The notes under the pieces: model-generated
Told to the model about the DNA's origin: nothing
What the model saw: only the letters and a program-made list of their open reading frames with translations
Databases searched by the model: none
In this document: piece after piece, positions 5,773 through 32,935 of the stretch
Numbering within the stretch: position 1 is the first letter of the stretch
Layout: every line of letters begins with the position of its first letter
Assembly: GCA_018400715.1 (NCBI GenBank)
Contig: JAGYME010000005.1
Location: forward strand, 3,620-67,619
Direction of reading: 5' to 3'
Origin: Candidatus Bipolaricaulota bacterium
Lineage (GTDB): Bacteria; Bipolaricaulota; Bipolaricaulia; M55B111
Length of the DNA: 64,000 nt
Translations under genes and position numbers: made by a program

Positions 5773-6151
5773 TCAGTCCGCAGTCCGCAGTTCGGGCTCC
5801 TGGGTTTTGGGTCTTAGGCTATGGGTATTGGGTTATGAGGGTTAGTCTTTATCAGCTTGTAGCTTGTAGCTTGTAGTGCGTAGTTTGTAGTTAATTCACA
5901 AAGGAAGTTGGTATTTAATCATGGATAGCCCTAAAGACCTCGACCGTTGACACCGAAAAACTGGTACCTGATACCTGTTACCTGGTAGCTCGCTAACGCC
6001 GCCAACCCCCGCTCACCGACCAATCCTAAATCCTACATCCTAACCCCTCAAACCTGGTACCTGGTACCGCCCACCCATTACCCATTAACCAATTCACCAA
6101 TCAACAAATCAACCAGTCAACCCATTAACCCATTAACCCATTAACTAATCA
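5773..6151 (+). repeat. Modular short-tandem-repeat element, copy A
   Basis: Blocks in order: (CAGTYCG)3, GGGTTTT/GGGTCTT/GGGTATT block, (AGCTTGT)n, non-repetitive core, (CTGGTAC/CTGATAC)n, (ATCCTAM)n, (CCCATTAA/CCAATCAA)n; 5788-5930 aligns at roughly 90% by eye to copy D 19892-20035. Confidence 0.9.
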
Positions 6152-6221
6152 TCAGAGAGGGGGCGCTTGGTTTGGGAAATCAACGTTGCAGGTGAGCCGA
6201 CTTAGAACGTCGAGGGGGAAC

Positions 6222-7085
6222 TTATTCCCCCGGCTCTTCGACCACGCTCTTCAACGCCTCCAGGGCGACTTCGAGCTGGTCGTCATCGGGTTCGCGGGTG
6301 GTAATTTTCTGCAGCATCAACCCGGGAAACAGGAAGGGTTTTAGCAGTGGGTTGCCCGCGTGCTTACCGGAGAAGCGGAGTATTTCGTAGGAAATCCCGG
6401 CAACTACGGGCAACAACAGAATCCTGGACACAATCTTTATCCACAGGGAGGGATTTCCCACGAGGGAAAAGACCAAAATGGCCACGACGAGGACTATCAT
6501 CAAGAAGGCCGTCCCACAGCGGGGATGGAGCGTGCTATAATCCCTGGCCTCGTCGACAGTCAGGTCCCTGCCGTCCTCGTAGGTGTAAACGGACTTGTGT
6601 TCTGCCCCGTGATACTGAAAAACTCGCTTGATGTCCTCAAAGTAAGTAATCCCCAGCAGATAAAGTAGGAATAGCGTTATCCTGATGAGGCCCTCGACCA
6701 AGTTGAACAGGATCGGGTTGGCATCGCTGAGGCCCCAGAGGTTGTTGGTCGCCCAGACCGGGAGCATGACGAAGAAGACTACCGCAACGACGACGGCAAT
6801 CCCCGTCGTCAGGAACGCTTCCTTGGTACCGAACTCCGCGTCTTCTTCCTCTTCCAAAGCGATCTCGGCTGACAGGTTGAGCGCCCTGATTCCGGTGCTC
6901 ATCATGTCGTAGAGGTTGAACAGGCCGCGGACGAAAGGTATATTGCTCAAGCGCTTGAACCGCTGACGGGACGTCATTTTTTCAACAACTATCTCCCCGT
7001 CGGCCTCGCGCCTCACGGCTACAGATATCCTGTCGCCGTTTCTCATCAATACGCCTTCAATTACCGCCTGCCCACCTACAGCCAT
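6222..7085 (-). CDS. DUF1385 family membrane protein (YqhQ-like)
   Basis: GGQAVIEGV, FQYHGAEHK, HPRCGT, TTREP motifs; follows rpmE as is usual. Confidence 0.92.
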   Translation of the reverse strand: MAVGGQAVIEGVLMRNGDRISVAVRREADGEIVVEKMTSRQRFKRLSNIPFVRGLFNLYDMMSTGIRALNLSAEIALEEEEDAEFGTKEAFLTTGIAVVVAVVFFVMLPVWATNNLWGLSDANPILFNLVEGLIRITLFLLYLLGITYFEDIKRVFQYHGAEHKSVYTYEDGRDLTVDEARDYSTLHPRCGTAFLMIVLVVAILVFSLVGNPSLWIKIVSRILLLPVVAGISYEILRFSGKHAGNPLLKPFLFPGLMLQKITTREPDDDQLEVALEALKSVVEEPGE

Positions 7086-7134
7086 TCAGGACCTCACTTC
7101 GTAAGTCGGGAAAATTAGGAAGGTTATCAAGTAC

Positions 7135-7404
7135 TTACTCTTCCGCGGCCTCTGACTCTTCTGCGCTTTCCTCTTCGACTTCTTCTTCTTCCGACTCCTC
7201 GTCAGAGTTTATACCATATTTCTTCTCAAACTTACTGATTCTTCCCTCAGAATCCAGGAATCTATCCTCCCCGGAAAAGAACGGGTGGCAGCTGGAGCAA
7301 ACGTCGACGTGCAGGTCTTCCTTCGTAGAAAACGTCTCGAAGGTGTTACCACAGGCACATCGAACTGTAACCTTTTTCAACTCGGGATGAATTCCTTCTT
7401 TCAT
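7135..7404 (-). CDS. rpmE: 50S ribosomal protein L31 (Zn-binding type) with acidic tail
   Basis: [20 protein letters not shown]. Confidence 0.96.
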
Positions 7405-7472
7405 CGTTCCTCACCTCAGTAACGAAAATGGAACTGATCAACGAAAATATCTCTTGGTGATGAAGTGCTGGA

Positions 7473-7895
7473 TTAACGTTTGGAGAATTGCTGTCCTCTT
7501 CTGGCCTTGTGACGCCCAATCTTCTTTCTCTCGACCATTCGAGGATCACGTGTAAGCAGTCCTTCCTTCTTCAAATCGGACCTGTATTCATCATTTAAAG
7601 CTGTCATCGCCCGGGCAATACCGTGCTGCAGAGCTTCCAGCTGTGCCCTGTAACCCCCGCCTTCTACCGTAGCTTCGACCTCAAAGTTGTTCTCCGTGCC
7701 GGTAGCCTTAAACGGTTTCCTCGCCACAAGGTCGACCATTTCCTCGGTATAGGGCAAGCTACGGAAGTAGTCGACGGCGTCTTGATCGTTAACGGTTATG
7801 CTGCCGTCTCCGCGATCGAGGTACACGCGCGCGATCGCTTCCTTTCTTTTGCCCACACAATGGGCTCTATCGTGAATCATCTTGGGTTGTGCCAT
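7473..7895 (-). CDS. rpsI: 30S ribosomal protein S9
   Basis: GKRKEAIARV, GGG..AQ, LLTRDPRMVERKK, QFSKR. Confidence 0.96.
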   Translation of the reverse strand: MAQPKMIHDRAHCVGKRKEAIARVYLDRGDGSITVNDQDAVDYFRSLPYTEEMVDLVARKPFKATGTENNFEVEATVEGGGYRAQLEALQHGIARAMTALNDEYRSDLKKEGLLTRDPRMVERKKIGRHKARRGQQFSKR

Positions 7896-8001
7896 CTATA
7901 ATTCTACCTCCAGAAGTTCTTCCTTGAAATTTCTCTCTAATGATAAAAAACCAGTTCGAGGTTTGCAACGGGGGCGAATAAGTCGGCAATCCCGGCCTAA
8001 C

Positions 8002-9189
8002 CTAGGTGGTCGAGGATATCGGCATGCAGACGTAGAGGAAATCCCCGCTTTCCTCGGCAGGCTCCATGAGCCCGGCTGTCTCCGCGTCTTCGAGCCACAG
8101 CACCACTTCCTGGCCCTTCATCCGTCTCAGCGCATCGACGAGAAACTCCCCTTTAAAGGATATCTCGACCGACCCTTTGCTCGCCTCGTTGAGAGAGACG
8201 ACCTCCTCGAACTCACCCTTCTCGGGAGAGGACGAGTAGATGGTTAGCTCTTTCATCTCCTCCTCGACCGTTAACCTGACGGCACCGGACTCCTCCGATG
8301 CGGTTATCTCCGCCCTGGTCAGAGTCTCCAGGAACTCGTCACGGTTAATCCGCAGCGGAAGCTCGTTACCCTCGGGAATCACCGTTTCGAAGTCGGGGAA
8401 CTCCTCCATTATCAACTTGTCCGAAAAGACGATCTCATCGGTAACGAAGAAGATCTCGGACTTTGAGGCGTAGGTCGTCACTACGTCGGAATCGGCCTGA
8501 GAGAGAATTCTGTCCAGCTCCGAGAGGGCGCTCGACTCTATCAACAAAGTTCCCTCCTCGTCGGAGTCAGACAGAGGCAGCGACTTGATAGCCATCCGAT
8601 ATCCGTTGGTAGCGACCATCTTCATGCCCCCCTCGCCGATAATGGTATTGACGCCGGTCAGGGACAACCTGGTCGTCTCCTTTGTTTTGAGGGCGGCAAA
8701 CGTAGTCTGTTTGATGGCTGACTTGAACTCGCCCACGTCCAGTTCGGCGATCGGCTCCTCCGGGAGTTCGTCGACCGAGGGAAAATCGTCCGTCGACATC
8801 TGGAACAGGTCGAATGTAATAGACCCGGACGAGAGCTTGACCTTCTGATTCTCTTCGGGGTCGGACGAGAGCTTGACCTCGCCGCTCTCGGGGATACGCT
8901 GAGTAATCTTCGCCAGGACGTCCCCCTTCAAAACGACCGTGGCCGGCTCAGCCAGGTTAGTGATCGGTATCGCAACCCTCGTAGTCATCTCCAGGTCGGT
9001 AGTGGTGAGTTTCATCTCTTCCCCGCCGATTTCCATCTTCACGCCAGTTAATATTGGCATGTCCCGTCCCGTGCCAAGGCTCCGCTTGACCACGTCCATG
9101 CCATATATAAGATCCTTAGTCTGACAGCTTAAGTCCACCTGAGCAGGCCTCTCCGTTTCGGGTTCCAGTTCCGGATCGGTCACGTTCAA
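8002..9189 (-). CDS. dnaN: DNA polymerase III beta clamp
   Basis: PILTGV, TTDLE, VATNGYRM, FPDFETVIP, YVCMPI; TTG start with SD GGAGG. Confidence 0.93.
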   Translation of the reverse strand: MNVTDPELEPETERPAQVDLSCQTKDLIYGMDVVKRSLGTGRDMPILTGVKMEIGGEEMKLTTTDLEMTTRVAIPITNLAEPATVVLKGDVLAKITQRIPESGEVKLSSDPEENQKVKLSSGSITFDLFQMSTDDFPSVDELPEEPIAELDVGEFKSAIKQTTFAALKTKETTRLSLTGVNTIIGEGGMKMVATNGYRMAIKSLPLSDSDEEGTLLIESSALSELDRILSQADSDVVTTYASKSEIFFVTDEIVFSDKLIMEEFPDFETVIPEGNELPLRINRDEFLETLTRAEITASEESGAVRLTVEEEMKELTIYSSSPEKGEFEEVVSLNEASKGSVEISFKGEFLVDALRRMKGQEVVLWLEDAETAGLMEPAEESGDFLYVCMPISSTT

Positions 9190-9267
9190 TACCTCCTTGT
9201 TATTCTCCTGTTAACCGTACAGTTGAAACAAACATAACCATATGATACTAACTACAACCTCATTAAT

Positions 9268-9906
9268 CTATCCGTTGAGATCGTTCAATTCCTCTCCCAC
9301 CTGACCGCGAACTATCTCGTGAATATCTTCCTTTGTAAGCGACCCATCTATCACCATGTGGTCCGCCCTTTGCGAGACTTCCCTGAGGTATCCTTCCCTG
9401 ACCTTGAGGTAAAAGTCCTCGCTCTCCTTTTCAATCCTGTCGGGTTCCTTGCCCAGGGTCCTGGAGTCCATCGCCTTCAGGTCGATGTCAAGGAAGAACG
9501 TGAGGTCGGGCTCGACTCCGTCCACGGCGACGGCGTTCAACTTCTTCACGTCCTCGATCCGCACACCTCTGCCATATCCTTGATACGCTACTGAGGAGAG
9601 GGCAAACCTATCAGAGATAACTATCTTGCCCTCCTCCAGTTCCGGAACAAGCTTTTCCCTAACCAGCTGGGAGCGCGAGACCTCGTACAGGAAGAGTTCG
9701 GCGATACCGGTTATGTCTATTCCCCTGTCCTCTAATAGCAACTCCCTGACCTCGCGACCGAGGGCGGTCCCGCCGGGCTCCTCGACAACCAGTACAGAAT
9801 ATCCCCGGCCTTCCAGGTAGTCCGCCAACAAGTTGGCCTGAGTCGTCGTGCCGGAACCGTCAAGGCCTTCGAACACGAAGAACTTGCCCTCTCGCCTATC
9901 TTCCAA
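9268..9906 (-). CDS. tmk: Thymidylate kinase
   Basis: FEGLDGSGTTTQ, EPGGT, SDRF..SS.AYQG. Confidence 0.95.
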   Translation of the reverse strand: MEDRREGKFFVFEGLDGSGTTTQANLLADYLEGRGYSVLVVEEPGGTALGREVRELLLEDRGIDITGIAELFLYEVSRSQLVREKLVPELEEGKIVISDRFALSSVAYQGYGRGVRIEDVKKLNAVAVDGVEPDLTFFLDIDLKAMDSRTLGKEPDRIEKESEDFYLKVREGYLREVSQRADHMVIDGSLTKEDIHEIVRGQVGEELNDLNG

Positions 9907-10351
9907 TTGCTTCAGAACCCCCTATAAGTCCAAATACGATCAGCCCCGTGCCACTGACTATGGCCACGTCGGCGAGGTTGAATATGGGCAGGTCCCCGAA
10001 CTGGATGAAGTCAACTACCGCACCGTAAGCGATCCTGTCGATCAGGTTGCCACAGGAGCCGCCGAGAAGCAAGGCCAATCCCAACCTTATGACGAGCTGG
10101 TTTATGTTCGAAAAGAACAGGAGATAGGCAATCAACCCCACCGAGATAAAGGTTATTAGGGCAAATAGAGCGCTGCGCCTGGGCAGAATCCCAAATGCCC
10201 CACCCGAGTTCTCGACGTACCTCAATGAGAGAAAGCCGGTACGAAAGAAGAGGGTCGAGCCCCGGTGATAGAAGAGGCTGACAAGCGCCTTGCTGATCCT
10301 ATCCAGGACGAGAACCGCACAGGCGATGTAAAAATAACCGAGACTACTCAA
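9896..10351 (-). CDS. lspA: Lipoprotein signal peptidase II
   Basis: NSGGAFG, GNLIDR, VVDFI, FNLAD; in-frame TTG at 10351 has SD GGAGG. Confidence 0.9.
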   Translation of the reverse strand: MSSLGYFYIACAVLVLDRISKALVSLFYHRGSTLFFRTGFLSLRYVENSGGAFGILPRRSALFALITFISVGLIAYLLFFSNINQLVIRLGLALLLGGSCGNLIDRIAYGAVVDFIQFGDLPIFNLADVAIVSGTGLIVFGLIGGSEAIGR

Positions 10352-10436
10352 TTCAACCTCCCGCAAAGAAACAATGCCTTCAAAATCTACATTTCTCAAA
10401 CCGCAAACGTCCCAAGATAAGTGCGGTGAAAATAGG

Positions 10437-13055: not shown

Positions 13056-13058
13056 CGA

Positions 13059-14360
13059 CTATTCCTTTTCAATTGAAAGCCTGTGGAGAACTGGCCCGGT
13101 CAACAACTTCGGGTAGAAGTCCGTGGACTTCTGCGGCATCTTCTCTCCTTTGTCGGCTATCTCCTTGACCTGATCGATTCTGGTCGGGTTCATGATGAAC
13201 GCGCCCTGGTACTTTCCTTCCTTGAGCATGTCGAGTGCCTTCTCGCGCCCCCGGACGTACTCCAGGTTTCTCTTTTCCTCGAGCGCCTCCTCATCGATTC
13301 CGAGGTATCCTTCAAGGATGAGCTTGTGGAGTATGGCCACGTCGAGGCTCCTCCAGACTTCCGACTTGTCGGGGAGGAGTTCATCCATCACCGACTCGTT
13401 AAGCAGCGTCAAACTCCAGTAGGCCTTGTCGCCCTTGGCGCGATAGCCAAACGTGTGTTTGTCCCCCAGGTCCTCGTCCAGCTTCTCCAGCAGACCTTCC
13501 CTCTCGTCGAACCGCGAAATAGAGAAGTGTTCTCTGGCCTTGTCCAGCACGTCGTGAGGCTTGAATTTATCGAGTCCATATACCAACCTGTGAGTCGCCA
13601 GTATGCTCAAGCCGGGGTCGTCCACGTTGACGAAGGTCATCATTCTGTGATCGAACCCCTCGTCCCCCACAGATTCCCAGCCCTTTTCCCTGCACTCGTT
13701 CCTGTAGTTTAGAGCAGTCTCGTAGCGATGGTGACCGTCAGCAATGTATAGACTCTTGTCCTTCATACCACCCTGGATGGACGAGATAAATGATTCATCA
13801 GTTATCCTCCAGAGCTTGTGGACGTTTCGGTCCGCGTCCTTGACTTCGACCAGGGGCTCCTCCCCCGTCACCGAATCGAGCGTCCCCGTCACCGAGTTTT
13901 CCGGGTCAGAGTACAGCATGAAGATCTGCCCGAAGTTTGATTCGGTAGCCCTAAGCAGCCGTAACCTATCGGCCTTGGGGCCGGACATCGTCTCCTCGTG
14001 TGCCTTGACGCCTTCTCCCTCTTCGATCTTGCCGAGTCCGATAAACCCTTTGCGGACCCTCTTTTCGCCCTCGACCTTGTATTCCTGGTAGTAAGCGTAA
14101 AAAGCGGGTTCCTCATCCCGCTGGAGTACGCCTTCGTCAATCCAATCCTGCAGGTAATCTGCGGCAACTTCGTACTTGTCCTCGTCCTCTCCAATAGCCT
14201 CGCTCAGAATAATCCTGACGATGTTGTAGGGGCTACTGTTTATCAGGTCCTCCCTGGTCTCGCCATCGATCTTGTCGTAAGGTGGACTTACGACGCGGTT
14301 TAGGTCGCCGGCTTTTTCACGGTTGTACCTATACCCACGGAACGGGTATACCTCTGCCAT
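13059..14360 (-). CDS. DUF1015 family protein
   Basis: VSPPYD, AHEET, YIADGHHRYETA, MPQKSTDFYPKL; usual neighbour of serA/aminotransferase. Confidence 0.92.
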   Translation of the reverse strand: MAEVYPFRGYRYNREKAGDLNRVVSPPYDKIDGETREDLINSSPYNIVRIILSEAIGEDEDKYEVAADYLQDWIDEGVLQRDEEPAFYAYYQEYKVEGEKRVRKGFIGLGKIEEGEGVKAHEETMSGPKADRLRLLRATESNFGQIFMLYSDPENSVTGTLDSVTGEEPLVEVKDADRNVHKLWRITDESFISSIQGGMKDKSLYIADGHHRYETALNYRNECREKGWESVGDEGFDHRMMTFVNVDDPGLSILATHRLVYGLDKFKPHDVLDKAREHFSISRFDEREGLLEKLDEDLGDKHTFGYRAKGDKAYWSLTLLNESVMDELLPDKSEVWRSLDVAILHKLILEGYLGIDEEALEEKRNLEYVRGREKALDMLKEGKYQGAFIMNPTRIDQVKEIADKGEKMPQKSTDFYPKLLTGPVLHRLSIEKE

Positions 14361-14365
14361 TGTGT

Positions 14366-15277: not shown

Positions 15278-15291
15278 GTTTCCCCCTCCTA

Positions 15292-16365: not shown

Positions 16366-16500
16366 AACTATAGCACCTCCAAAATTTTTTTCATCAAAGG
16401 ATATTAAACCATATTGACGTTTGCAAAAAGGTTAACCTCGGGGCTAGTTTACTCCATTTTTTATTATAGATGAAACGTAGGAAGTTTGCGAACGGATATA

Positions 16501-16832
16501 TCAGTCCGCAGTCCGCAGTCAGGGCTCCTGGGTGTTGGCTCTTAGGTCGTAGGTCCTGGCAATTAGCATCTAGTAACCAATTAATCAAATCCCCCATTAA
16601 CCCATTACCGTTAACCCGTAAACCCCCACCTATCGCTACCTTTGAATCCCAACCACTACCACCGAACAACTGATACCTGATACCTAGTACCGGGTACCGG
16701 ATACCTCCCCTCCCATTACCCGTTACACATTACCAATTAACCAATTCACCAATTAACAAATCAACCAGTCAACTCATCAACCCATTACTCATCAACCCAT
16801 TAACTCATTACCCGCCACCCAATCAACCAGTT
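16501..16832 (+). repeat. Modular short-tandem-repeat element, copy B
   Basis: (CAGTCCG)2-CAGTCAG-GGCTCCTGGGTGTTGG..., then TCCTGGCAATTAG..TCTAGTAACCAA block shared with copy F, (CTGATAC/CTAGTAC/CGGATAC)n, (CCAATTAA/CCATTAA)n. Confidence 0.9.
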
Positions 16833-16877
16833 ATCGAAGAAAACAATACGGGGTTCTGTCTGATCAATATACAAAGA

Positions 16878-16895
16878 TAGTGAATCAAAGCACAA
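16878..16895. promoter_or_regulatory. Putative Rex operator (autoregulation)
   Basis: TAGTGAA-TCAA-AGCACAA vs Rex consensus TTGTGAA-N4-TTCACAA, upstream of rex. Confidence 0.5.
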
Positions 16896-16930
16896 AGTTT
16901 GCGGTTACATCTTAATTTTTCGTATTATTT

Positions 16931-16939
16931 TGGTATAAT
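16931..16939 (+). promoter_or_regulatory. Extended -10 promoter of rex
   Basis: TGGTATAAT (TGnTATAAT) ending 33 bp before the ATG. Confidence 0.55.
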
Positions 16940-16972
16940 ACTTTAGTCAACAAAAAAATACGAGGGTGAAAG

Positions 16973-17590: not shown

Positions 17591-17649
17591 GGACTCCTAT
17601 TAGACCTTCAATCGTGTTGCAACGTGGTTGTCCCCGGTTACGTAACACA

Positions 17650-17742
17650 AGGTATCAGGTACCCGGTATTAGGGTTTAGCAATTGCAAATGAGGTTTTCG
17701 GGGAACTGGTACCAGATACCGGATACCTAGTAGCTGGTACCT
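17650..17742. repeat. Short repeat element, copy C (inverted pair of GGTAC/GATAC heptamer blocks)
   Basis: AGGTATC-AGGTACC-CGGTATT facing CTGGTAC-CAGATAC-CGGATAC-CTAGTAG-CTGGTAC between convergent rex and coaX. Confidence 0.75.
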
Positions 17743-19806: not shown

Positions 19807-19876
19807 AAGACCTCCCGGGAAGATAAGTAAATTATTATATGATATTTTAGTAGATTGCGAGGCGGATACAACTTGG

Positions 19877-20275
19877 TCGGTTCGCCGTTCGCAGTTCGCA
19901 ATCAGGGCTCCTGGGTGTTGGGTCTTAGGCCATGGGTATTGGGTTATGTGGGTTAGCCTTGATTAGCTTGTAGCTTGTAGTGCGTAGTTTGTAGTTAATT
20001 CACAAAGGGAGTTGGTATTTTAATCATAGATAGCCGCGGGTTTACCCATTAAAGTTTACACATACTGGAGTAACTGGTACCGGATACCTGCTACCTGGTA
20101 CCTTTCTAACGTCGCCAGCCCCCGCTCACCCGACACCCTACATCCTGACCCCTACATCCTACATCCTAAACCCTACATCCTGACCCCCCATTCCCCATTA
20201 CCCATTAACAAATCAACCAATTAACTCTTTAACCCGTTAACCCATTAACTTGGACTTGGACTTCGGACGTTGGAC
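19877..20275 (+). repeat. Modular short-tandem-repeat element, copy D
   Basis: Left half near-identical to copy A; right half (ACACATACTGGAGTAACTGGTACCGGATACC...) near-identical to copy F; ends in (TTGGAC)n block. Confidence 0.9.
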
Positions 20276-22305: not shown

Positions 22306-22541
22306 AATTCACCCCTCATAACTAAGTATTGAGGAATTAACCCTAAACCGTCTATTAATAAGGATTAAAAGTCAATTTCCTATGATCAGTCAGTTTATCT
22401 CCAAAAACTTCATGCAGGCGTAGGTCATTAATCAGAGATTCCGAACACCTCTATGCCGCGGTCAAGCCGTATATTGCTAAAGTATATGCGATCCGTTAAT
22501 CTTGTACAACTGAATAATGTTTAGTCATCGGGGAGGTTTTT

Positions 22542-23567: not shown

Positions 23568-23639
23568 CGGTAGACTTCCCCGAGCGTTACCCGGACCCAC
23601 GGGTCCATGGAGCCCATGAAAGATCTGAGCAGATGGTCG

Positions 23640-24560: not shown

Positions 24561-24567
24561 AGGAAAA

Positions 24568-25752: not shown

Positions 25753-25791
25753 CCCTTTTAATTTTTTAACCTTAAATCGGCTACGGATAAT

Positions 25792-26238
25792 CTAGAAGGG
25801 TATATCCTCGTCGTCATCTGCTGCCTCTGGCTTGCCGGTCGGCTTTCCTGGAGTTCCTTTTGAACTTCCCTGTGAGCTTCCTCCCTGTCCTTCCCCCTGA
25901 TTTCTCCCGGTTCCAAGGAACTGAACGTTTCGCGCGACGACGCTCGTCCACTTGCGCTTGTTACCGTCGTCGTCCTCGTAGTTCGAAATCCTTAATCTAC
26001 CGGTTACGGCTACGGGACGGCCCTTGCTGAGATACGTCGCACAGTTCTCTGCAGTGTTCCTCCAGGTAGTAATCGGGACGAAGGTCGTCTCCTCCTGAAG
26101 TTCGTCGTTTCTGTCCCTCCACTGCCTGTTCACGGCAACGGTGAAAGTCGTCCGGGCAACGCCAGACTGGGTATACTGAAGTTCGGGATCGCCAGTTAAG
26201 TTACCAATAAGAACAACTTGATTAAGACTTGCTGCCAT
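25792..26238 (-). CDS. ssb: Single-stranded DNA-binding protein
   Basis: LNQVVLIGNLTGDPEL, VAVNR, C-terminal DEDIPF. Confidence 0.97.
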   Translation of the reverse strand: MAASLNQVVLIGNLTGDPELQYTQSGVARTTFTVAVNRQWRDRNDELQEETTFVPITTWRNTAENCATYLSKGRPVAVTGRLRISNYEDDDGNKRKWTSVVARNVQFLGTGRNQGEGQGGSSQGSSKGTPGKPTGKPEAADDDEDIPF

Positions 26239-26348
26239 AGTACTTCACCTCTATTGAATTCGAAGGAAATGATACCCTCGAAGACGCTTAGCCTCAAGTA
26301 AGTAGTTTATCTAACCTCTCACTTTGGGCTACTATACCGGGATATCGG

Positions 26349-26576
26349 TTATACGGCGACTACTTCCTCGATCTCGGGTATCTTTGATTCCAGCACCTTC
26401 TCGACGCCCTGCTTGAGGGTCATCGTTGACAGCGGACAGCCAACGCAGGCACCAACCAGCTGGACCTTAACTACGTTGTCCTCTGTAATCTCACTTAGCA
26501 GTACGTTACCGCCATCTGCCTGTATGGACGGCCTTATCTCATCTAGAGCTTTTTCAACTTCTTCTTCAGAGATCAT
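26349..26576 (-). CDS. NifU C-terminal domain (Nfu) Fe-S carrier
   Basis: IRPSIQADGGN, GACVGCP.S..TLK.G. Confidence 0.93.
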   Translation of the reverse strand: MISEEEVEKALDEIRPSIQADGGNVLLSEITEDNVVKVQLVGACVGCPLSTMTLKQGVEKVLESKIPEIEEVVAV

Positions 26577-26720
26577 GTTTACTCACCTTTCCTCTTTTAA
26601 AGTGGACTATTTTACTCCAGTTTCGGGTAAAATCTTAGCACAACCACGTCCCGAACACAACCGGGGGAATTAATAGACAAAAATATGCTATATAGTCACT
26701 GGCGAGAAATCAAGCGCGCA

Positions 26721-27003
26721 TCAGTTCGCAATTCGAAACACCAGTCCAAGGTCCAAAGTCCAAGGTCCAAAGTCATTCACAAACTACGTTTATTCTGTTT
26801 TTACATCTTGCCTCTGGAACAGAGTTTTACCAGTGGCGCCATGAAAGTGCTAAGAGTTAACACCGATAATCCCTAATCTATTAATTTTAGATCTTGATTC
26901 CAAAAAAACTGGTGCCTGACACCTGGTACTTCTTCACCCAATTAACCAATTAACCAATTAACTCTTTAACCCGTCAACTCATTAACCCCCGACCCGTTAC
27001 CCA
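26721..27003 (+). repeat. Modular short-tandem-repeat element, copy E
   Basis: CAGTTCG-CAATTCG, (GTCCAAR)4, ~130-nt unique core, CTGGTGC-CTGACAC-CTGGTAC, (CCAATTAA)3-CTCTTTAA-CCCGTCAA. Confidence 0.85.
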
Positions 27004-27004
27004 A

Positions 27005-28192
27005 TCATCGCGACAAAGTCGGCCTCGCCTTCGCCCCATCGCTCGCCTGAACGACAAAACTCCGGGGCGTGACGTCAAATTCCTCCTCGAAGGCGCGCGT
27101 CGCACCATCGACGTACTCGTCCAGCTGCTCCTCGGGTACAAGATGTATCGTCGAGCCACCAAACCCGCCGCCCGTCATTCTCGCCCCCGGGATGGGGAAA
27201 TTTAGGGCAAAGTCAACCAAGAAGTCGAGTTCGGGGGCACTGACTTTGTACCTGTCCCGTAAGCTATCATGAGAGGCGTAGAATAGTTTGCCCACCTCTT
27301 CCGTCTCCCCTATCGAGAGAAAGTCGGCCGCGTCGACCACGCGCTCGTTCTCCGTAACGACGTGGTAAGTGCGGTCGTACAGGGTCCCCGGCAATACCTT
27401 CTCAAGATCCTCCAGCTGGTATACCTTTAACCCGCTGAGGGAATCCAGATGCCCGGGACCAAATTCCGCGTTAATCATTTCCAGAGCCTCTTCGCATTCC
27501 TCCCTGCGCTTGTTGTACTGATTGGCACCATGAGTATGAGAAACGGTGGTATCTATCACTACAAGGACGTGGTTCCCGATGTTAAGGTCTACGGCCTGAT
27601 AGTTTAACGAACTCGTATTTAACAATAGCGCTGTACCGCCGCGACCGAAGTAGGATATGTATTGATCCATGATCCCCGTACTCGCGCCGACGAAGTCGTT
27701 CTCCGCCTTCCTGCAGGAGTTAATTACTTCGAAATCGTCAAGTTCCAGGCCGAAGACGTCCGTGAGGGCTCCCATGACCCCGACCTCCAGGGCAGCAGAG
27801 CTGGACAGTCCTCCACCAACGGGCACTTCGGAGTCGACCAACAGGTCGAAACCGTCGAGCTCAGCACCCTTACGGTCCAGTTCAACGAGAAGCCCCTGCA
27901 CGTAGTCGGTCCACTTGTCCTGGCGGTCGTGAAGCTTCCCCAACTCAATTAATCCGGACTCGTCCAGGTTCGTCGAATAGAGGCGGACGGAGTCCTCGCC
28001 GGTCGTTCTAATACAGACGCGGGTATCGAGGTCGATGGCTATCGGCAAGACCAACCCCCCGTTGTAGTCGGTATGCTCCCCGATCAGGTTAACCCGGCCG
28101 GGGGCACGATAGACCTCCGGCTGAGGACTGGACCCGAATACCTCGTGGAAGATCTCTCTCAGCGGGTCTATTGTCCCGTTACTCAAGTCCAT
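27005..28192 (-). CDS. galK: Galactokinase
   Basis: APGRVNLIGEHTDYN, GGGLSSSAALE, GIMDQ, GARMTGGGFGG. Confidence 0.96.
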   Translation of the reverse strand: MDLSNGTIDPLREIFHEVFGSSPQPEVYRAPGRVNLIGEHTDYNGGLVLPIAIDLDTRVCIRTTGEDSVRLYSTNLDESGLIELGKLHDRQDKWTDYVQGLLVELDRKGAELDGFDLLVDSEVPVGGGLSSSAALEVGVMGALTDVFGLELDDFEVINSCRKAENDFVGASTGIMDQYISYFGRGGTALLLNTSSLNYQAVDLNIGNHVLVVIDTTVSHTHGANQYNKRREECEEALEMINAEFGPGHLDSLSGLKVYQLEDLEKVLPGTLYDRTYHVVTENERVVDAADFLSIGETEEVGKLFYASHDSLRDRYKVSAPELDFLVDFALNFPIPGARMTGGGFGGSTIHLVPEEQLDEYVDGATRAFEEEFDVTPRSFVVQASDGAKARPTLSR

Positions 28193-29141
28193 CGGCCTCC
28201 CGGAGGTCCCTGGCCATCTTTTCCGGTGATATCGAAGAGATAAACGTCCCTGCCCCCGTCTCTACGCCCGCCCGGTACTTAATCTTGTCCGCGGCTCGCT
28301 GTAATGAGTAGAACTCCAGGTGGAAGTGGAAGTATGGATAGTCGTCGCCGTCAACCGGGGCCTGATGGAAGGTCATCATGTAGGGAAACTCCTCGACCGG
28401 AAAGAGGCCTTCGTAGGAGGTGAGGACCGACTTGATCCCCGCCGCCAGTGACGGTATCTCTTCCCGATTCATGCCCAGGATGTCTGGATAGTGGCGTTTA
28501 GGATAGAGGTGGACCTCGTAAGGGAGATGGGCAAAGAAGGGAACGAACGCGACAAAGTGCTCGTCCTCCCAGATCACCCGTGTAGCAAGGTTTCGCTCCT
28601 TCTCCATTATCCGACAGTAAAGACAGGTCCCGGCCCGTTCCAAATGGCTTTCGGCGCTGTCCAGGGCCCGTTGAGCTCGAGGTGGAACAAAGGGAAAGGC
28701 GTAAAGTTGACCATGGGGGTGGTAGAGGGTAACCCCGATTTCCTCTCCCCTGTTTTCAAATATGTAAATATAGTCAACGAAGTCCTCCTGAGACAGGTCC
28801 GTAAACCTATCCCGCCAGACTGAGATCAGGTCCTCGAACCTGGTCTGACCGATGTCCGCGGGTTGGACGTCGTGGTCCGAGGTGTAGAGGAGGACCTCAC
28901 ACACGCCCTTGTTCGGCCTAACCCGGTAAAAGGAGTCACCTTCTAGGTTAGGCCTTCCCGGATCCCGCCTGAGGGCGGGAAACCTGTTCTCGAAGGAAAC
29001 TATGTAGTAATCCTCCTGGGGGACCTCCAGGACCTCAGGACATAGAGGACAGCTATCTTCCGGCAAGACGGGCCTGTCCTGCCGCTCGTCCGATACGATA
29101 TTCCACCTTTCCAGTATTGGATTCCATCTCAATTCAGCCAT
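28179..29141 (-). CDS. galT: Galactose-1-phosphate uridylyltransferase
   Basis: ELRWNP, CPLCP, FENRG, HPHGQ active site. Confidence 0.95.
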   Translation of the reverse strand: MAELRWNPILERWNIVSDERQDRPVLPEDSCPLCPEVLEVPQEDYYIVSFENRFPALRRDPGRPNLEGDSFYRVRPNKGVCEVLLYTSDHDVQPADIGQTRFEDLISVWRDRFTDLSQEDFVDYIYIFENRGEEIGVTLYHPHGQLYAFPFVPPRAQRALDSAESHLERAGTCLYCRIMEKERNLATRVIWEDEHFVAFVPFFAHLPYEVHLYPKRHYPDILGMNREEIPSLAAGIKSVLTSYEGLFPVEEFPYMMTFHQAPVDGDDYPYFHFHLEFYSLQRAADKIKYRAGVETGAGTFISSISPEKMARDLREADGLE

Positions 29142-29484
29142 CAGTTAGCTCTCGCCTCCATCCTCTTGGGGTGAATAATAATAGATGTATCTACCGTCGT
29201 CCTTGCGTTTCTTTTCAACCGTGAGCCTATTTACCTGATAAACCTTCAACCTTCGTTCCATTGAGCACACCTCGTGGTACACTTTTTCGCCTTACCCCTG
29301 ATCTTACAGGGGGTTACAAACAAGATTATATGGTCAAGCCGCTCCGTAAAAAAGATTACGATCACGAAGCAACTTTATTAGCTGGAATATGTATGATATC
29401 ATCTTCGACGGTTACTGGAAATCGTAAGCTCCAGAGACCGCGAGTGGCAAGATTACCACTAACGAGACAAATGGAGGTAATAAA

Positions 29485-30453
29485 ATGATTGGCAAGGTTA
29501 GCCCAGAAGATTTGGAAAAATACGTCTTCCACAGAACTGGAAAGGACCGCGACAGCGTTCTGGTTGGGCCCGCTTATGGAGAGGATACGGCGGCAATCCA
29601 GATCGGAGATCAGGTCCTCGTCGTTAACTCGGACCCGATAATCTTCGCTGCTGAGGGCATCGGCACGCTGGGTATCAATATCGCGAGCAACGACGTAGCT
29701 GCGTCCGGCGCTGATCCAGAGTGGTTAACGGTAACCTACCTGCTCCCGGCGGAGGACGGGGAGGTCCTGGACAAGATTACCGACCAGATAGATAGAGCGT
29801 CAAAGAAACTGGATATATCAGTAGTCGGCGGACATTCCGAGTTTGTTCCAATACTCAATCGTCCCTTCCTTGGGCTAACTTGCTTTGGAACGACGGAAAA
29901 GTTTATTTCAACAGGAGGTGGAAAACCCGGCGACGTAATCGTCCTTACCAAAGGTGCCGGTGTAGAGGGCACGGGAATCATCGCCACCGACTTTCACGAC
30001 GAGGTGAGCGACGCAGTCGAGGGGTCGGTAATCAGCCGCGGGGCTGAGAACCTCGACAGGTTAAGCGTCATTCCCGAGTCAACCGTGCTGAGAAAGTACG
30101 CCAACTCGATGCATGACCCCACCGAAGGTGGAATAGTCGACGGCCTCCTGGAACTCGCGGTCGCTTCCGGACTTGAACTTCACGTGGACCGGGAAAAGAT
30201 AATTACTTCTTCCGAGACGGAACTGCTCTGCGGGGCGATGGACGTCGACCCCCTCAAGGTCTTTGGGTCCGGAGCCCTGGTCGCTACTCTACCGGAAGAA
30301 GACGCGCCACGGGCAATGACCGAACTAGAGGCGAAAGGGGTACCTGCAAGCGTGATCGGCCGCTGCGAAAGTGGAGAAACGCCGGGTCTCTACATCGATG
30401 ATGAGGTATACAGAGAACCTGTCAGAGACCAACTTTACGACCTCTGGGAGTAG
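29485..30453 (+). CDS. AIR synthase / HypE-like PurM-superfamily protein
   Basis: GEDTA, SDPI, NDVAASGA, GGHSE, MHDPTEGG. Confidence 0.88.
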   Translation: MIGKVSPEDLEKYVFHRTGKDRDSVLVGPAYGEDTAAIQIGDQVLVVNSDPIIFAAEGIGTLGINIASNDVAASGADPEWLTVTYLLPAEDGEVLDKITDQIDRASKKLDISVVGGHSEFVPILNRPFLGLTCFGTTEKFISTGGGKPGDVIVLTKGAGVEGTGIIATDFHDEVSDAVEGSVISRGAENLDRLSVIPESTVLRKYANSMHDPTEGGIVDGLLELAVASGLELHVDREKIITSSETELLCGAMDVDPLKVFGSGALVATLPEEDAPRAMTELEAKGVPASVIGRCESGETPGLYIDDEVYREPVRDQLYDLWE

Positions 30454-30456
30454 GAC

Positions 30457-31095
30457 CTAGCGGAAGTAGTCAATCAATTCGCGCATTTCGTTCATCCCTG
30501 CGCCGTCGCGGGTGAAGAGGATAAATTTCATGCCTGTGGCCTCCGCGAATTCTCTATCTCCGGCTCTATCGCCAATGTACCATGAATTACCCTTCCCGAT
30601 AGTCATAACGAGCTTTTTATAGAGGTAGGGGTGCGGTTTCAATCTATCCAGGTCCTCCAACTCCAGCCCGCGCCCCGCCCAGGCGGAAAAGAGGTCTTCA
30701 AACCCGTAACGGGTAACGAACTCGTCCACGACGATCTGCGGAGAGTTACTGATAATCGCCAGAGAGTAATCCTCAGCCAGTTCGTATAGAAGTTCGACGT
30801 CGGAGAACGACGTCATCCGCCCGGACTCTATCATCCGGACCTTCCTCTCTATGTAATACCTGTCCCTGATCTTCCAGATCTCCTCCGGCGTGCCGGGAAA
30901 ATCACGTACTGCCACCGTGAATTCGTCGAGGTTGCCCGGATAGAGTTTTTCCATGTTCTCCTGCGTCGGATCCACACCTACCTCTTCCAGCGCGGACCTC
31001 GTCGCTTCCACAAGCCAGCTCAGGTCGCTTTCCGAGTCAAGCAGTACTCCGTCCATGTCAAAGATGATTCTCTCGTCGCGGCCTTTTATGCTCAT
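30457..31095 (-). CDS. HAD family hydrolase
   Basis: FDMDGVLLDS, ISNS, KPHP, YIGDR..D. Confidence 0.88.
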   Translation of the reverse strand: MSIKGRDERIIFDMDGVLLDSESDLSWLVEATRSALEEVGVDPTQENMEKLYPGNLDEFTVAVRDFPGTPEEIWKIRDRYYIERKVRMIESGRMTSFSDVELLYELAEDYSLAIISNSPQIVVDEFVTRYGFEDLFSAWAGRGLELEDLDRLKPHPYLYKKLVMTIGKGNSWYIGDRAGDREFAEATGMKFILFTRDGAGMNEMRELIDYFR

Positions 31096-31173
31096 CGTTA
31101 GCGGAGTTCCCTTGTTATCCTGAAAGTAAACGTTATACCAATATGAATTCTTATAATTTCGCCGGGGAAGGTC

Positions 31174-32214
31174 TTAACTACAACTACAGTTAGTGGCGTC
31201 ATGGATGACGTCACGCATGTCAACCTCTCCGCCGGCGATTCGGGCACACTGACCACAGCCGGAGCAACCATATTCCCCAAACTTCTCGTAGTAGCGGACG
31301 AACTTGTCGTAGAACATCTCTTTGATCCGACTATCCGTCGTGTCGTCCGACTCTAATTCCTTACACATCTTCTTGATAGTCGCTCCGTCCCACACCTCGC
31401 CAAGTATCTCGGTCTTGGAGCCCTCTTGCTTGAGATCGTGTAGGGCAAGAGAAGTCGGACAGGCCAGAGTGTACGCAGAGCAGTAACTGCTTTTCCTGGA
31501 GTACTTCTTCCAGAAGGGGGCGTCACGTCCGACCTCGTCAAGATGTGAACCGACCTCAAAGTAACTGTTCTGTTCCTCAAGGCGACTGGTCATCTCCTCG
31601 CGGTGCTTTTCCCGTTCCCGTATTTGGTCTTCGGTCGCCTCAGTAAAGTAATGATTATAGCGGTCGAGGAGCTCGTGCCCTTTCGCTGAATCCTCTCCTA
31701 CCTCAATTATTAAATCCCCATAAGCGGGGAGGTTGGAGACGTTCAAATCGAACCCGCTCTTTGGATAGGGGGCTCCGCCGACCTTGTTGCAGAAACACTT
31801 GTCAGAAACGTCGATACAGTCGCAGGAGATTATCGTGGTCCTTTCCCTGCGCTGATCGTAGAACGGGTAACTGAAATCCCCCTCCGAGAAGGCCTTGTCG
31901 AGAATTTGCAAAGACCTAATTTCACAACTCTTGTAACCGAAAATCACCGTCTCCTTGTCCTCTTTCTCCGGATTACCGTCGGGATAGGTGTGTAAAATGT
32001 TCTTCGGTGGAAGGAAAAAATCTTTGGATATCGCGTCGGTGCGCCGACAATTGAGTTGAAAGTGGGTTTTGTCAGGTTCCCAGCGAGAGAATTCCCATTT
32101 GGACCTCGGCCCACCTTCCTGCTGGCAAAAGACAGGCATAAATACGTAGGCATCGGATGCCAGATCGTCAAACATACTCCGCAAATCCCACTCAGAAAGA
32201 CTGTATATTTCCAT
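31174..32214 (-). CDS. AsrA / sulfhydrogenase-beta-like Fe-S protein with degenerate ferredoxin motifs
   Basis: FGYKSCE...LD..F, RR.....I..DC...CFC, GFD, ACPT, CSGCGQC. Confidence 0.75.
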   Translation of the reverse strand: MEIYSLSEWDLRSMFDDLASDAYVFMPVFCQQEGGPRSKWEFSRWEPDKTHFQLNCRRTDAISKDFFLPPKNILHTYPDGNPEKEDKETVIFGYKSCEIRSLQILDKAFSEGDFSYPFYDQRRERTTIISCDCIDVSDKCFCNKVGGAPYPKSGFDLNVSNLPAYGDLIIEVGEDSAKGHELLDRYNHYFTEATEDQIREREKHREEMTSRLEEQNSYFEVGSHLDEVGRDAPFWKKYSRKSSYCSAYTLACPTSLALHDLKQEGSKTEILGEVWDGATIKKMCKELESDDTTDSRIKEMFYDKFVRYYEKFGEYGCSGCGQCARIAGGEVDMRDVIHDATNCSCS

Positions 32215-32290
32215 ATCTGCCTCCCGTAAAAACTTTCGACGGCTAAAGTAGGCGGTACCTTCTAAGATTAACGAGGTCTGAGCGTTTCGT

Positions 32291-32935
32291 CAAATTCGCA
32301 GTTCTCAGTTCGCAGTTCTCAGTTCTCAGTCAGGGGTCCTGAGTGTTGGGTTTTGGGTCTTAGGTCCTGGCAATTAGTCTCTAGTAACCAACTTAATCAA
32401 ATCCCCCATCTACACGTTACCCGCTACCCGTTACACATTACACATCACCAATTAATCAATTCACCAATCAACCTGTCAACTCTTTAACTCATTAACACGT
32501 TACCCGTGACTGTCTTAAATAACGGTGCTGGGAGATTTCTACAAATGTTGACACAATTAATTCGGTATGTGCAGGCTAGCTGAACGACTACGTTGCACAT
32601 ACCGAAGCAACTCGGTAAACCCTTATACCAAACATGACCCCACGGGTGAACCCGTGGCTATGCCCGTAAAAGTTACACATACCGGAGTAACTGGTACCGG
32701 ATACCTGTTACCTGGTACCTCGCTAACACAACCAACTCCCGCTCACAGACCAACCCACATCCTACCCCCTACATCCTAAACCCTGGCTCCTAATACCTCA
32801 CCACCCATCACCCAATTAACCAATTAACCAATCAACTCTTTGACCCATCAACACATCAACCCGTTAACCCGACGTCCGCTCACCAGCCAACCTGAATCCT
32901 AAACCCTACCCCCTGGTACCGGATACCGGATACCT
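32291..32935 (+). repeat. Modular short-tandem-repeat element, copy F (largest, composite)
   Basis: (CAGTTCT/CAGTTCG)5, B-type left arm, octamer block, ~160-nt core with hairpins, D-type right arm, second octamer block, terminal CTGGTAC-CGGATAC-CGGATAC. Confidence 0.9.

Follow-up and report, generated by a model that had tools for sequence, protein, structure and literature searches.

The window, by which we mean the whole 64-kb stretch of draft genome that was analysed, contains six intergenic elements (A to F) that combine short tandem blocks with linkers and longer modules. Element B sits between two divergent promoters that are kept in both congeners, element E adjoins the stop codon of a galactokinase-like gene at 27005, and element F, the fullest copy, ends 10 nt upstream of the ribosome-binding site of a deaminase gene at 32958. 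The elements are composed as follows.

Element A, 5753..6151, + strand: CAGTCCG x2.6 (5774-5791); linker GGGCTCCTGGG; G/T-rich units (5801-5837); AGCTTGT-type units (5854-5892); module M2b (5888-5930); CTGATAC-type units (5961-5984); linker ending CCCGCTCAC; AATCCTA (6022-6043); ACCTGGT (6052-6068); octamers (6072-6151).
Element B, 16501..16832, + strand: CAGTCCG x2.7 (16502-16520); linker; module M2a (16548-16600); octamers (16593-16625); CTGATAC-type units (16670-16706); octamers (16714-16813).
Element C, 17650..17742, no strand assigned: inverted CYGRTAC arms around a short centre, with convergent genes on either side.
Element D, 19875..20275, + strand: GTTCGCA x3 (19880-19900); linker; G/T-rich units; TAGTTTG/AGCTTGT (19964-19996); M2b with motif T (19990-20046); GTACCTG units (20070-20103); linker; ACATCCT (20128-20181); octamers (20187-20249); ACTTGG units forming an inverted GTCCAAR-like block (20248-20275).
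Element E, 26721..27003, + strand: CAGTTCG-like unit; AGTCCAA/GGTCCAA x4.6 (26743-26774); single-copy 134-nt core (26775-26908); CTGGTGC/CTGACAC units; octamers (26938-26987).
Element F, 32291..32935, + strand: TTCGCAG/TTCTCAG x5 (32295-32330); linker; G/T-rich units; M2a (32360-32430); octamer-like units (32431-32496); palindromic module M3 (32524-32666), whose 3' hairpin and inverted motif T occupy 32645-32661; GTACCTG (32680-32720); linker; ACATCCT (32752-32784); octamers (32812-32870); TACCGGA (32917-32934).

Tandem Repeats Finder (TRF) recovers the period-7 and period-8 arrays of the original prediction at all six sites, with the units it had named and far beyond chance. Element C, which had been listed as one of the six elements, is more precisely two CYGRTAC arms in inverted orientation, and these fold into a hairpin (z = -2.7; 4/200 shuffles fold equally well). 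A check against Rfam 15 gave no family match to the elements: the only hit at or above a gathering score in the 64-kb window is a tRNA, outside the elements. By eye, the leftmost 20 nt of element A (5753-5773) resemble a decayed 17-nt motif T, a sequence described below.

A genome-wide family with a shared block order

The original prediction had proposed a family of six. The sites do belong to a single family of homologous composites, but this comprises at least 67 elements, totalling 21,780 nt or 0.99% of the 2.19-Mb draft assembly, a count that is a lower bound because 19 of the 67 are found no more than 400 nt from where a contig ends. The elements measure 50-930 nt and are overlapped by spurious ORFs only; judging from their unit sequence, the octamer arrays carry stops in every frame. 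The family thereby has the small size (under about 600-700 bp) and lack of coding capacity of a MITE, together with the intergenic tandem 7-nt units of variable copy number that define heptamer SSR arrays.

The shared order runs from (CAGTYCG)n through the GGGCTCCTGGG linker, G/T-rich heptamers and alternative non-repeat modules to (CYGRTAC)n, the CCCGCTCAC linker, (ATCCTAM)n and finally (CCMATTAA)n. With element orientation set from motif strand only, the block order that had been claimed for the window holds genome-wide. CAGTYCG precedes CYGRTAC in 36/37 elements containing both and precedes ATCCTAM in 24/24; G/T-rich units come before CYGRTAC in 30/33, M2b before M3 in 9/9 and M3 before CYGRTAC in 14/16, and the order statistics include a further 16/16. 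The proposed CAGTYCG left edge requires qualification, as in about ten elements an extra module and a 17-nt motif sit outside this block. Two-unit words are strongly over-represented in the genome (CAGTCCGCAGTCCG, 21 occurrences against 0.016 expected; CCAATTAACCAATTAA, 15 against 0.001), and whole-genome TRF output contains 294 rows of period 7, 153 of period 8 and 164 of period 9, so that periods 7 and 8 top the period spectrum with the exception of period 9. The linkers and modules common to the elements in the same order are non-repetitive, 20-190 nt long and 75-93% identical across loci.

Elements A and D illustrate how copies diverge. They align with 84% column identity over about 400 nt and differ by indels of 6-9 bases within the arrays, in line with the conserved linkers and varying unit number originally described; a contig from a public sequencing run has one additional TAGCTTG unit in D. 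With this identity at loci whose flanks are unrelated, whole composites have been copied.

Strand polarity and placement

Composition changes along the element, with G falling from 27% to 13% and C rising from 26% to 34%; the distal 60% of the element strand has a C fraction of 0.32-0.35 and a G fraction of 0.13-0.16. With gene positions taken from a crude longest-ORF caller, the CAGTYCG end adjoins a gene start read away from the element in 45/61 cases (74%, p = 0.0003), and of the 53 elements whose neighbours could be called on both sides, 19 fall between divergent genes. The Rehm/MacGregor strand rule, by which the G-rich strand is coding after stops and the C-rich strand before starts, is followed by the arrays, significantly so only after stops: arrays within 50 nt downstream of a stop codon have G>C on the coding strand in 28/35 cases (p = 0.0005), and the tendency before start codons in this genome is weak (11/17, p = 0.33). 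Among 85 loci with the same octamer in many phyla, one was tied; at 67 of the other 84, the array lies nearer the gene 3' of its C-rich strand. The elements also contain 31 of the genome's 99 canonical G-quadruplex (G4) motifs, mostly on the strand and in the half that polarity predicts (7/9 and 15/22).

These features admit a reading, which we judge unlikely though worth weighing, in which the elements are selected transcriptional insulators. RNA read through an element from its CAGTYCG end, being C-rich, G-poor, untranslatable and poorly folded, would fit the profile of a putative Rho loading site, the element would stop divergent or antisense transcripts, or read-through from a neighbour, before the next gene, and G-quadruplex-prone runs on the other strand would add a block in some copies. 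Besides the distal composition and the enrichment of G4 motifs, this is favoured by the placement of the CAGTYCG end at promoters, by the octamer polarity in other phyla and by the same polarity rule in Xanthomonas and Nostoc, whose G-rich heptamers are reported to follow it (PMC4692102). The C-rich RNA is the antisense one in 21/27 tandem gene contexts, element A folds no better than its shuffles on either strand (z = +1.3 and +0.65), and Rho is encoded in the genome (107 bits). Several observations argue against it. Element D lies beyond what appears by eye to be the upstream gene's terminator, a hairpin followed by a T run, which should already keep read-through at D low; both congeners manage the same intergenic sites without elements; G4 motifs occur in just 9 and 17 of the 67 elements; and the polarity before start codons is weak. 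The polarity rule also holds in Nostoc, whose phylum is not known to encode Rho.

The palindromic core and its age

The middle of the element had been described as a non-repetitive, swappable core. Among the window elements the core is single-copy in E only, and the cores at large are dispersed modules (M2a, 14 hits; M2b, 15 hits; M3, about 20 loci); alternative middle modules do exist, but they are better described as nested alternatives and deletion derivatives around a palindromic core. This core, M3, is an imperfect palindrome of about 143 nt that matches its own reverse complement, folds as a single long interrupted hairpin and has inverted 17-nt hairpin motifs at its bounds, the arrangement of short imperfect palindromes in inverted pairs that characterizes REP/REPIN sequences. 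The 17-nt motif T (ATAGCCRCGGGTTYACC) closes the module M2, of about 45 nt, and has 46 hits, against 1-4 per shuffled Mb with both strands counted. Because M2 ends in motif T and M3 in its inverse, a CCACGGG-N4-CCCGTGG hairpin stands at each end of M3. Pairing in the terminal hairpins is kept through differing stems (CACGGG/CCCGTG, CGGAGG/CCTCCG, CGGATG/CATCCG), and the central hairpin, with a loop of about 18 nt and a 14-bp stem, is almost invariant in both species that possess M3.

These species are two of the three in the genus with genomes, namely that of the window (G000), G001 and G002, all incomplete drafts (75-88%) from which repeats may have been lost. Across 184 genomes of the class, M3 is present in G000 and G001 only. 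Each of the three G001 copies has a CAGTCC block of 2-3 units, M2 and M3, and TRF reports no period-7 or period-8 array at any of them. Flank homology on both sides or on one side pairs G001 L137 with G000 C162 and G001 L139 with G000 C147; at the C162 locus, about 2.5 units in the G001 copy correspond to long arrays in G000. With at least two copies at matching loci, some of the family is old and has been inherited vertically, and some copies did not move. Interspecies identity of M3 averages 68-76% and reaches 84% at best, whereas four-fold degenerate sites are identical at 232/509 positions (46%); M3 is therefore under constraint.

Such constraint could also mean that the core (M2-T-M3) is itself the functional unit, either a multicopy small RNA gene or a site that acts in cis, as RNA or DNA, by binding a host protein, with the arrays a secondary decoration of its flanks. 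We find this rather improbable. It draws on the interspecies identity, the near-invariant central hairpin, the compensatory changes in the terminal hairpin and the fixed orientation of M3 relative to its neighbours in the element. Against it, the best Rfam match to element F is sub-threshold (14.6 bits, E = 3.7), no convincing promoter or terminator is seen by eye beside M3, few long-stem pairs covary, and many family members, among them A, B, D and E, are without M3. Stem mismatches number 88 G-T against 48 A-C, mostly in fixed columns, and point to no clear transcribed strand; since the palindrome matches its reverse complement almost as well as itself, it fits a DNA-level element.

Proposed spread of the family and its relation to known repeats

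The original prediction had further proposed a non-autonomous mobile or recombinogenic cassette. The copied homologous composites agree with this; the usual marks of transposition were not found. No clear target-site duplication was seen: by eye, D has a 7-nt direct repeat at its two edges and A has none. Terminal inverted repeats of the whole element were not found; an inverted GTCCAAR-like block closes D and one other copy, and M3 is bounded by motif T and its inverse. No cognate transposase is associated with the elements in this genome, which is 88% complete: searches returned DDE_Tnp_1 three times, rve once (below threshold) and TnpB not at all, the DDE_Tnp_1 contigs (C42, C74, C108) are absent among the 46 motif-T hits, and motif T lies on none of the contigs holding DDE_Tnp_1 or rve hits. 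At this completeness, the related autonomous element with the same ends expected for a MITE was not found. A single Y1/RAYT-like gene (PF01797, 30 bits, cut-off 23; NF047646, 64 bits, below the cut-off of 80) is bordered on both sides by a different inverted-doublet repeat family, and not by the same repeats as in a REPIN-RAYT system. M3 copies are nowhere more than 91.5% identical to one another, and element A has its best full-length BLAST match in D, at 77%, which gives no sign of very recent movement.

Comparison among relatives shows where the family has changed. Sites B, C and D are without an element in both same-genus genomes: flanking genes and promoters are kept and all similarity to family sequence has E > 0.05. 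This presence/absence difference, which had been put forward as a check on mobility, could reflect gain here or loss or decay in the congeners, and the congener spacers, which do not align past the promoters, provide no exact empty sites. A search with element A finds 33 places in G000 and no match in 40 relatives, and a 23-nt junction signature is absent from all 185,579 species genomes searched. In metagenome contigs the signature has one hit, in a coding region dissimilar to G000. Period-7 TRF rows number 13.4 per 100 kb in G000, 1.75 in G001 (114-kb sample) and 1.47 in G002 (409-kb sample), a heptamer array density about 8x that of the two congeners.

It is very improbable that the arrays arose separately at each site by local slippage and are alike through convergence or gene conversion, or that they are assembly artefacts: the same octamer arrays do occur in many unrelated phyla (at least 119 genome-contig stretches and 9 viral contigs), three sediment runs contain many unrelated contigs with arrays (summed depth 171-425 over the array) and 19 of the 67 elements are at contig ends, but convergence does not explain the shared, ordered linkers and modules, and short contigs of a public run, which may be the source sample and is then not fully independent, match stretches of B and D (105 and 138 nt) without a single difference, leaving no obvious assembly artefact.

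On balance, the elements are probably a lineage-expanded, composite, non-coding and non-autonomous family of intergenic repeats of MITE/REPIN-like type, with perhaps a function in putative transcriptional insulation. Its old part would be a MITE/REPIN-like unit, made of a short CAGTCCG block, the M2 module ending in motif T, and M3, that predates the split from a same-genus species and whose sequence selection maintains, in the service of either a host function or the unit's own propagation. In the present species, heptamer and octamer arrays would have overgrown both arms through replication slippage, leaving on either strand a G/T-rich 5' side and a C-rich, G-poor 3' two-thirds. Whole composites would then have been copied to new intergenic sites, presumably through duplicative spread by an enzyme, and the copies would drift by unit gain and loss, internal deletion and exchange of middle modules. 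The elements occupy free DNA that immediately precedes core promoters or follows the ends of genes. A purely selfish reading would not predict the host function at which the constraint on M3 and the strand polarity hint.

Modular extragenic elements in which few motif types follow set orders are familiar from BIME/REP of enterobacteria, BOX of pneumococcus, NIME/Correia of Neisseria and ERIC, and some BOX-type modules (boxB) vary in tandem number. ERIC palindromes of about 130 nt resemble M3, and the inverted hairpin pairs of REPINs resemble its ends. Unlike these elements, with units of 35-45 nt and sites at operon 3' ends, the present family has units of 7-8 nt, a strong strand-composition polarity and a preference for sites upstream of promoters. 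The STRR heptamers of heterocystous cyanobacteria are likewise tandem, of several sequence types and located in non-coding DNA; to our knowledge they have not been described as ordered cassettes with linkers, and they differ in phylum and unit sequences.

Mixed heptamer repeats in a single intergenic region have been reported in cyanobacteria and Bacteroidetes (PMC4679880), so the kind of system is not undescribed; for an ordered multi-motif heptamer cassette we found no published description. Like the TAACTGA and mixed heptamers of Beggiatoaceae, cyanobacteria and Bacteroidetes, the arrays are intergenic and sometimes mixed in one spacer, the spacers of close relatives are shorter and free of repeats, indels change the length by multiples of 7 and contigs break there; the consulted portion of that report mentions no fixed motif order, conserved linkers or hairpin core, and places most of those arrays within a few bases of a start codon, whereas those described here lie mostly upstream of the promoter or after the gene (PMC4679880). 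The GGGNATC-type repeats of Xanthomonas and Nostoc are also genome-dispersed intergenic tandem heptamers of variable unit number, near ordinary metabolic genes and not tied to IS elements, with G-quadruplex potential and a G-rich strand that is non-coding just upstream of genes and coding after stops (PMC4692102). Theirs is one motif type, under-represented between divergent genes and mostly common to two Xanthomonas species (PMC4692102); here there are six or more in order, with unique linkers and a palindromic core, divergent genes flank 19 of the 53 elements and the arrays are species-specific. A Porphyromonas gingivalis MITE with a minisatellite, as presented in the consulted part of its description, is similarly a small non-autonomous element holding a tandem array; it is a classical MITE with one array of longer units, whereas the present family, at whose edges no target duplication was found, has several short-unit arrays in both arms (PMC4596501).

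Block order and extent of the heptamer family

We find period-7/8 arrays carrying the repeat units listed in the original prediction at all six intergenic sites of the window, using Tandem Repeats Finder (TRF) and inspection of the sequences. These sites sit among ordinary housekeeping genes, their neighbours being a Cys/Met PLP enzyme, DUF1385, an aminotransferase, Rex, pantothenate kinase, an M20 peptidase, an SPFH protein, galactokinase and cytidine deaminase.

Intergenic elements of the window
5753-6151: element A
16501-16832: element B
17650-17742: element C, a pair of inverted CYGRTAC arms that folds as a hairpin (z = -2.7)
19875-20275: element D
26721-27003: element E
32291-32935: element F

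The family extends across the draft genome (2.19 Mb in 176 contigs, 52% G+C, 88% completeness), where two-unit words show 4-21 occurrences against 0.001-0.07 expected and TRF returns 294 rows of period 7 and 153 of period 8. A scan combining seven unit types, two linkers and three non-repeat modules, with cluster orientation fixed from motif strand alone, yields 67 confident elements totaling 21,780 nt (0.99% of the assembly), a count that is a lower bound because 19 of them sit within 400 nt of a contig end. The family proposed from the window is therefore real, and its proposed membership of six was too low, the genome holding at least 67.

Oriented elements follow a common order. (CAGTYCG)n is followed by the linker GGGSTCCTGRG and G/T-rich GGGTNTT units; next come optional (AGCTTGT)n or (GTCCAAR)n, then either the non-repeat module M2a with CCMATTAA octamers or module M2b, and optionally module M3; (CYGRTAC)n, a linker ending CCCGCTCAC, (ATCCTAM)n and (CCMATTAA)n complete the element.

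Relative order of blocks in elements of the draft genome
CAGTYCG ahead of CYGRTAC: 36/37
CAGTYCG ahead of ATCCTAM: 24/24
G/T units ahead of CYGRTAC: 30/33
CAGTYCG ahead of M3: 16/16
M3 ahead of CYGRTAC: 14/16
M2b ahead of M3: 9/9

Binomial p values were used for these counts, which, since family copies are not independent, show shared descent of a composite unit and not 67 separate events. Element A as a query finds 33 places in the genome, and elements A and D, which lie 14 kb from each other between unrelated flanks, share 84% column identity over ~400 nt, the indels of their alignment (6-9 bases) falling inside arrays. On balance, and by a modest margin over even odds, we favor reading the family as a lineage-expanded composite repeat. 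At its base would lie an old, constrained MITE/REPIN-like hairpin core, whose arms would have been overgrown by slippage arrays; whole composites would then be copied to new spacers and tolerated only in unoccupied DNA, ahead of promoters and beyond the ends of genes.

Polarity and placement of the arrays

Base composition shifts along the oriented element, G declining from 27% to 13% as C climbs from 26% to 34%. With gene positions taken from a crude ORF caller, 45 of 61 CAGTYCG ends adjoin a gene start (p = 0.0003), compared with 31 of 61 octamer ends; where genes are in tandem, 21 of 27 CAGTYCG ends face the start of the downstream gene. Of 35 arrays lying at most 50 nt downstream of a stop codon, 28 have more G than C on the coding strand, and of 17 lying at most 50 nt upstream of a start codon, 11 have more C than G (not significant), the same strand rule that Rehm et al. 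(PMC4692102) report for GGGNATC heptamers. In A, B and D a TATAAT-like -10 is seen 33-45 nt past the CAGTYCG block, so that the array there begins just upstream of the -35 region, and a -10-like hexamer occurs within 80 nt of the block at 21 of 38 loci, both observations being descriptive. We reject a replication-linked orientation: the element strand follows local GC skew in 36/58 cases and the majority strand of nearby genes in 34/58, which is too weak for strand-specific single-strand transposition.

The octamer is widespread. Runs of three CCMATTAA units are present in at least 119 stretches on contigs of genomes belonging to many phyla, the hosts among the matches listed being mostly Bacteroidota, together with Phycisphaerae, Ignavibacteria, Omnitrophota, Cloacimonadota, Patescibacteria, Moraxella and Vibrio. 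Contigs of many organisms from three sediment runs pile onto the octamer array of element B, with a summed depth of 171-425. Octamer arrays are also present in 9 viral contigs; a 14-kb viral contig (L183) carries them near both ends (170-193 and 13986-14009), inverted. Among the matches listed, 85 loci have both neighbors callable; at these, the array is nearer the gene on the 3′ side of the C-rich strand in 67, nearer the other side in 17 and tied in 1, independently of gene orientation. In other phyla, G/T-rich inverted arrays often occupy the opposite side of the octamer arrays, and C-less G-rich windows (126 on the 5′ side versus 46 on the 3′ side, at 84 loci among the matches listed) lean in the expected direction, the detector also picking up coding DNA.

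G-poor/C-rich 7-8-nt arrays may obey a polarity law, their C-rich strand directing its 3′ end at whichever gene is closest, in either gene orientation, from which it follows that paired arrays would always read G/T-rich then C/A-rich, on both strands. If true, this law would imply a shared and so far unrecognized process across phyla, for which selection insulating genes from incoming transcription is one candidate, and repair in which G/T-rich units are added to both 3′ ends of a break ahead of rejoining is another. That the C-rich, G-poor, untranslatable arm is itself a selected insulator appears unlikely to us. Rho is encoded in the genome, and 31 of its 99 canonical G4 motifs fall inside elements; a G4 is found on the respective strand in only 9 and 17 of the 67 elements. 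We discard a long hairpin between the G/T and C/A arms as a selected RNA fold, given that neither strand of element A yields a better fold than its shuffled counterparts.

Hairpin modules and their counterparts in congeners

Central to the preferred composite-repeat reading are the modules between the arrays. The original prediction placed a non-repetitive core there, which is accurate for element E, whose 134-nt core is single-copy; otherwise it breaks down into dispersed modules, M2a with 14 matches in the draft genome, M2b with 15, and M3, the core of element F, at ~20 loci. M3 is a ~143-nt imperfect palindrome, its reverse complement giving almost as good a match as the direct sequence, and folds into one long interrupted hairpin with a nearly invariant central 14-bp stem and loop. 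Motif T (ATAGCCRCGGGTTYACC), a 17-nt sequence with 46 matches where shuffled sequence gives 1-4 per Mb, forms the end of M2 and, inverted, that of M3, producing a CCACGGG-N4-CCCGTGG hairpin at both M3 ends whose pairing is preserved through differing stems among copies. An M2-like module with motif T also lies outside the CAGTYCG block in ~10 elements, so the left edge is not always the array. Promoters inside M2b or M3 were considered and set aside, with weak hexamer matches only; element A contains a weak promoter-like site (TTCACA-16-AATCAT), and a TATAAT inside the M3 stem has, by eye, no usable -35. A phage origin of M3 was likewise rejected, its conserved center having no match in viral contigs.

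Element A has no match in 40 relatives (2 of the same genus, 16 of the same family, the rest of the same class). A 23-nt junction signature has none among 185,579 species genomes and matches one metagenome contig, apparently in coding sequence and without similarity to the draft genome. Period-7 TRF rows per 100 kb number 13.4 in the draft genome, 1.75 in the congener G001 (114-kb sample) and 1.47 in the congener G002 (409-kb sample). Gene order around B, C and D is kept in both congeners (73-92% amino-acid identity), and the family is absent from these sites in both; at B both promoters still align, with ~60 nt between promoter pieces in G002. The corresponding G001 interval (L009:5560-6040) holds a single-copy, G+C-rich, unrelated filler of 480 nt between two conserved divergent promoters. 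A decayed family homologue in G001 was dismissed: MAFFT hints at short similarity, and HMM, motif and BLAST searches give nothing at E below 0.05. Genes orthologous to those at A and E are found in G002 (76% and 59% identity) with no arrays seen beside them, at loci that are not strict empty sites because their far-side neighbors differ; the G001 draft is without such orthologues, and site F has no clear orthologue (35% identity).

Among 184 genomes of the class, M3 turns up in two, the draft genome and G001. The three G001 copies, 71-78% identical to M3 of element F, comprise 2-3 CAGTCC-type units, an M2-like module and M3, with no period-7 or -8 array reported by TRF. Two of them occupy loci matching elements of the draft genome (L137 matching contig C162, and L139 contig C147); at C162 the draft genome has ~13 CAGTYCG-type units plus G/T and AGCTTGT arrays, against ~2.5 units in G001. 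The filled-versus-empty contrast with relatives suggested originally hence holds for B, C and D in both congeners and breaks down at these two shared loci.

Between the draft genome and G001, four orthologous genes agree at 232/509 of their four-fold degenerate sites (46%). M3 averages 68-76% identity between the species (best 84%) and 78% within the draft genome, and a matching-locus pair, at 69%, is no closer than other pairs, indicating that M3 is held near a consensus in both species. Host function could account for this conservation, as could continued propagation or conversion from intact copies. We regard it as improbable that M3 is an RNA gene or a protein-binding element; an Rfam comparison, proposed with the original prediction, leaves the elements without a match.

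Additional features in the window and outside it
Window 62829-62899, minus strand: tRNA gene, the only Rfam match in the window
Window 52722-53470: 264-nt unit in 2.8 tandem copies (99% identical) within a 665-aa ORF (52034-54031, minus strand), probably a recently duplicated protein domain
C162 ~4070-4400, compared with L137 of G001: ~300 nt of non-coding sequence preceding an orthologous gene, conserved far above neutral sites; could be a leader, riboswitch or small ORF
L135:1271-1564, in G001: small ORF adjoining M3, resembling from its sequence a ribbon-helix-helix protein
C162 ~4970-5325 and C47 ~875-1358, in the draft genome: homologous stretches beside M3, 77-87% identical (BLAST); M3 and the candidate ribbon-helix-helix gene may have been duplicated together

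Propagation and relation to known systems

Independent local origin of the arrays, or an assembly artefact, is very hard to credit: short contigs of one public freshwater-sediment run, not fully independent because it is possibly the source sample, match parts of B exactly over 105 and 138 nt, and part of D with one extra TAGCTTG unit, a unit-number polymorphism. The sole Y1/RAYT-like gene of the draft genome (C1 ~84100-85700, L013:1300-2800, outside the window) encodes 290 aa and scores 30 bits with PF01797 and 64 bits with NF047646, under the cut-off of 80. We reject it as mobilizer of the heptamer family since both its flanks carry a different family, present as 16 inverted doublets genome-wide; each doublet is an inverted ~25-nt repeat around a ~45-nt variable center, and gene and doublets look like a separate REPIN-RAYT pair. 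Other transposase matches are three DDE_Tnp_1 and one sub-threshold rve, none on any contig that bears motif T; TnpB has no match in the draft genome, and no consistent target duplication was found for heptamer-family elements.

A broader proposal joins the cross-phylum polarity law to M3 as a novel conserved non-coding element that would serve the host, perhaps as a protein-binding palindrome or a small RNA, and nucleate the arrays; neither part is in print, and we put the combination forward as a long shot.

Short non-coding repeats of bacteria are mostly known as REP/BIME, MITEs and single-motif heptamer arrays. The draft genome is an unusually legible case, with an old, constrained hairpin core also present in a sister species, species-specific ordered arrays that fill 1% of a compact 2.2-Mb genome with clean strand polarity, and matched loci with and without arrays. 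Two testable questions follow: whether the arrays insulate from foreign transcription, and what copies them. The same octamer with the same polarity across phyla suggests that the answer would hold far outside this organism.

The ordered heptamer cassette was not found in the literature searched (main texts of part of the open-access articles), and four 16-nt array words occur in no paper of the searchable literature. The family departs from REPINs in its absence from the RAYT flanks, and no consistent target duplication or partner element was found that would place it among MITEs, so that we do not assign it to any one known class. Mosaic BIME, BOX, NIME and ERIC elements are among the closest described systems. 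In their accessible parts, PMC6749651 notes a single heptamer family in Chloroflexus and PMC12699852 contains nothing on 7-8-nt units. Similarly close are the single-motif heptamer arrays of PMC4692102, where their role is still open, and the mixed heptamer spacers of PMC4679880.
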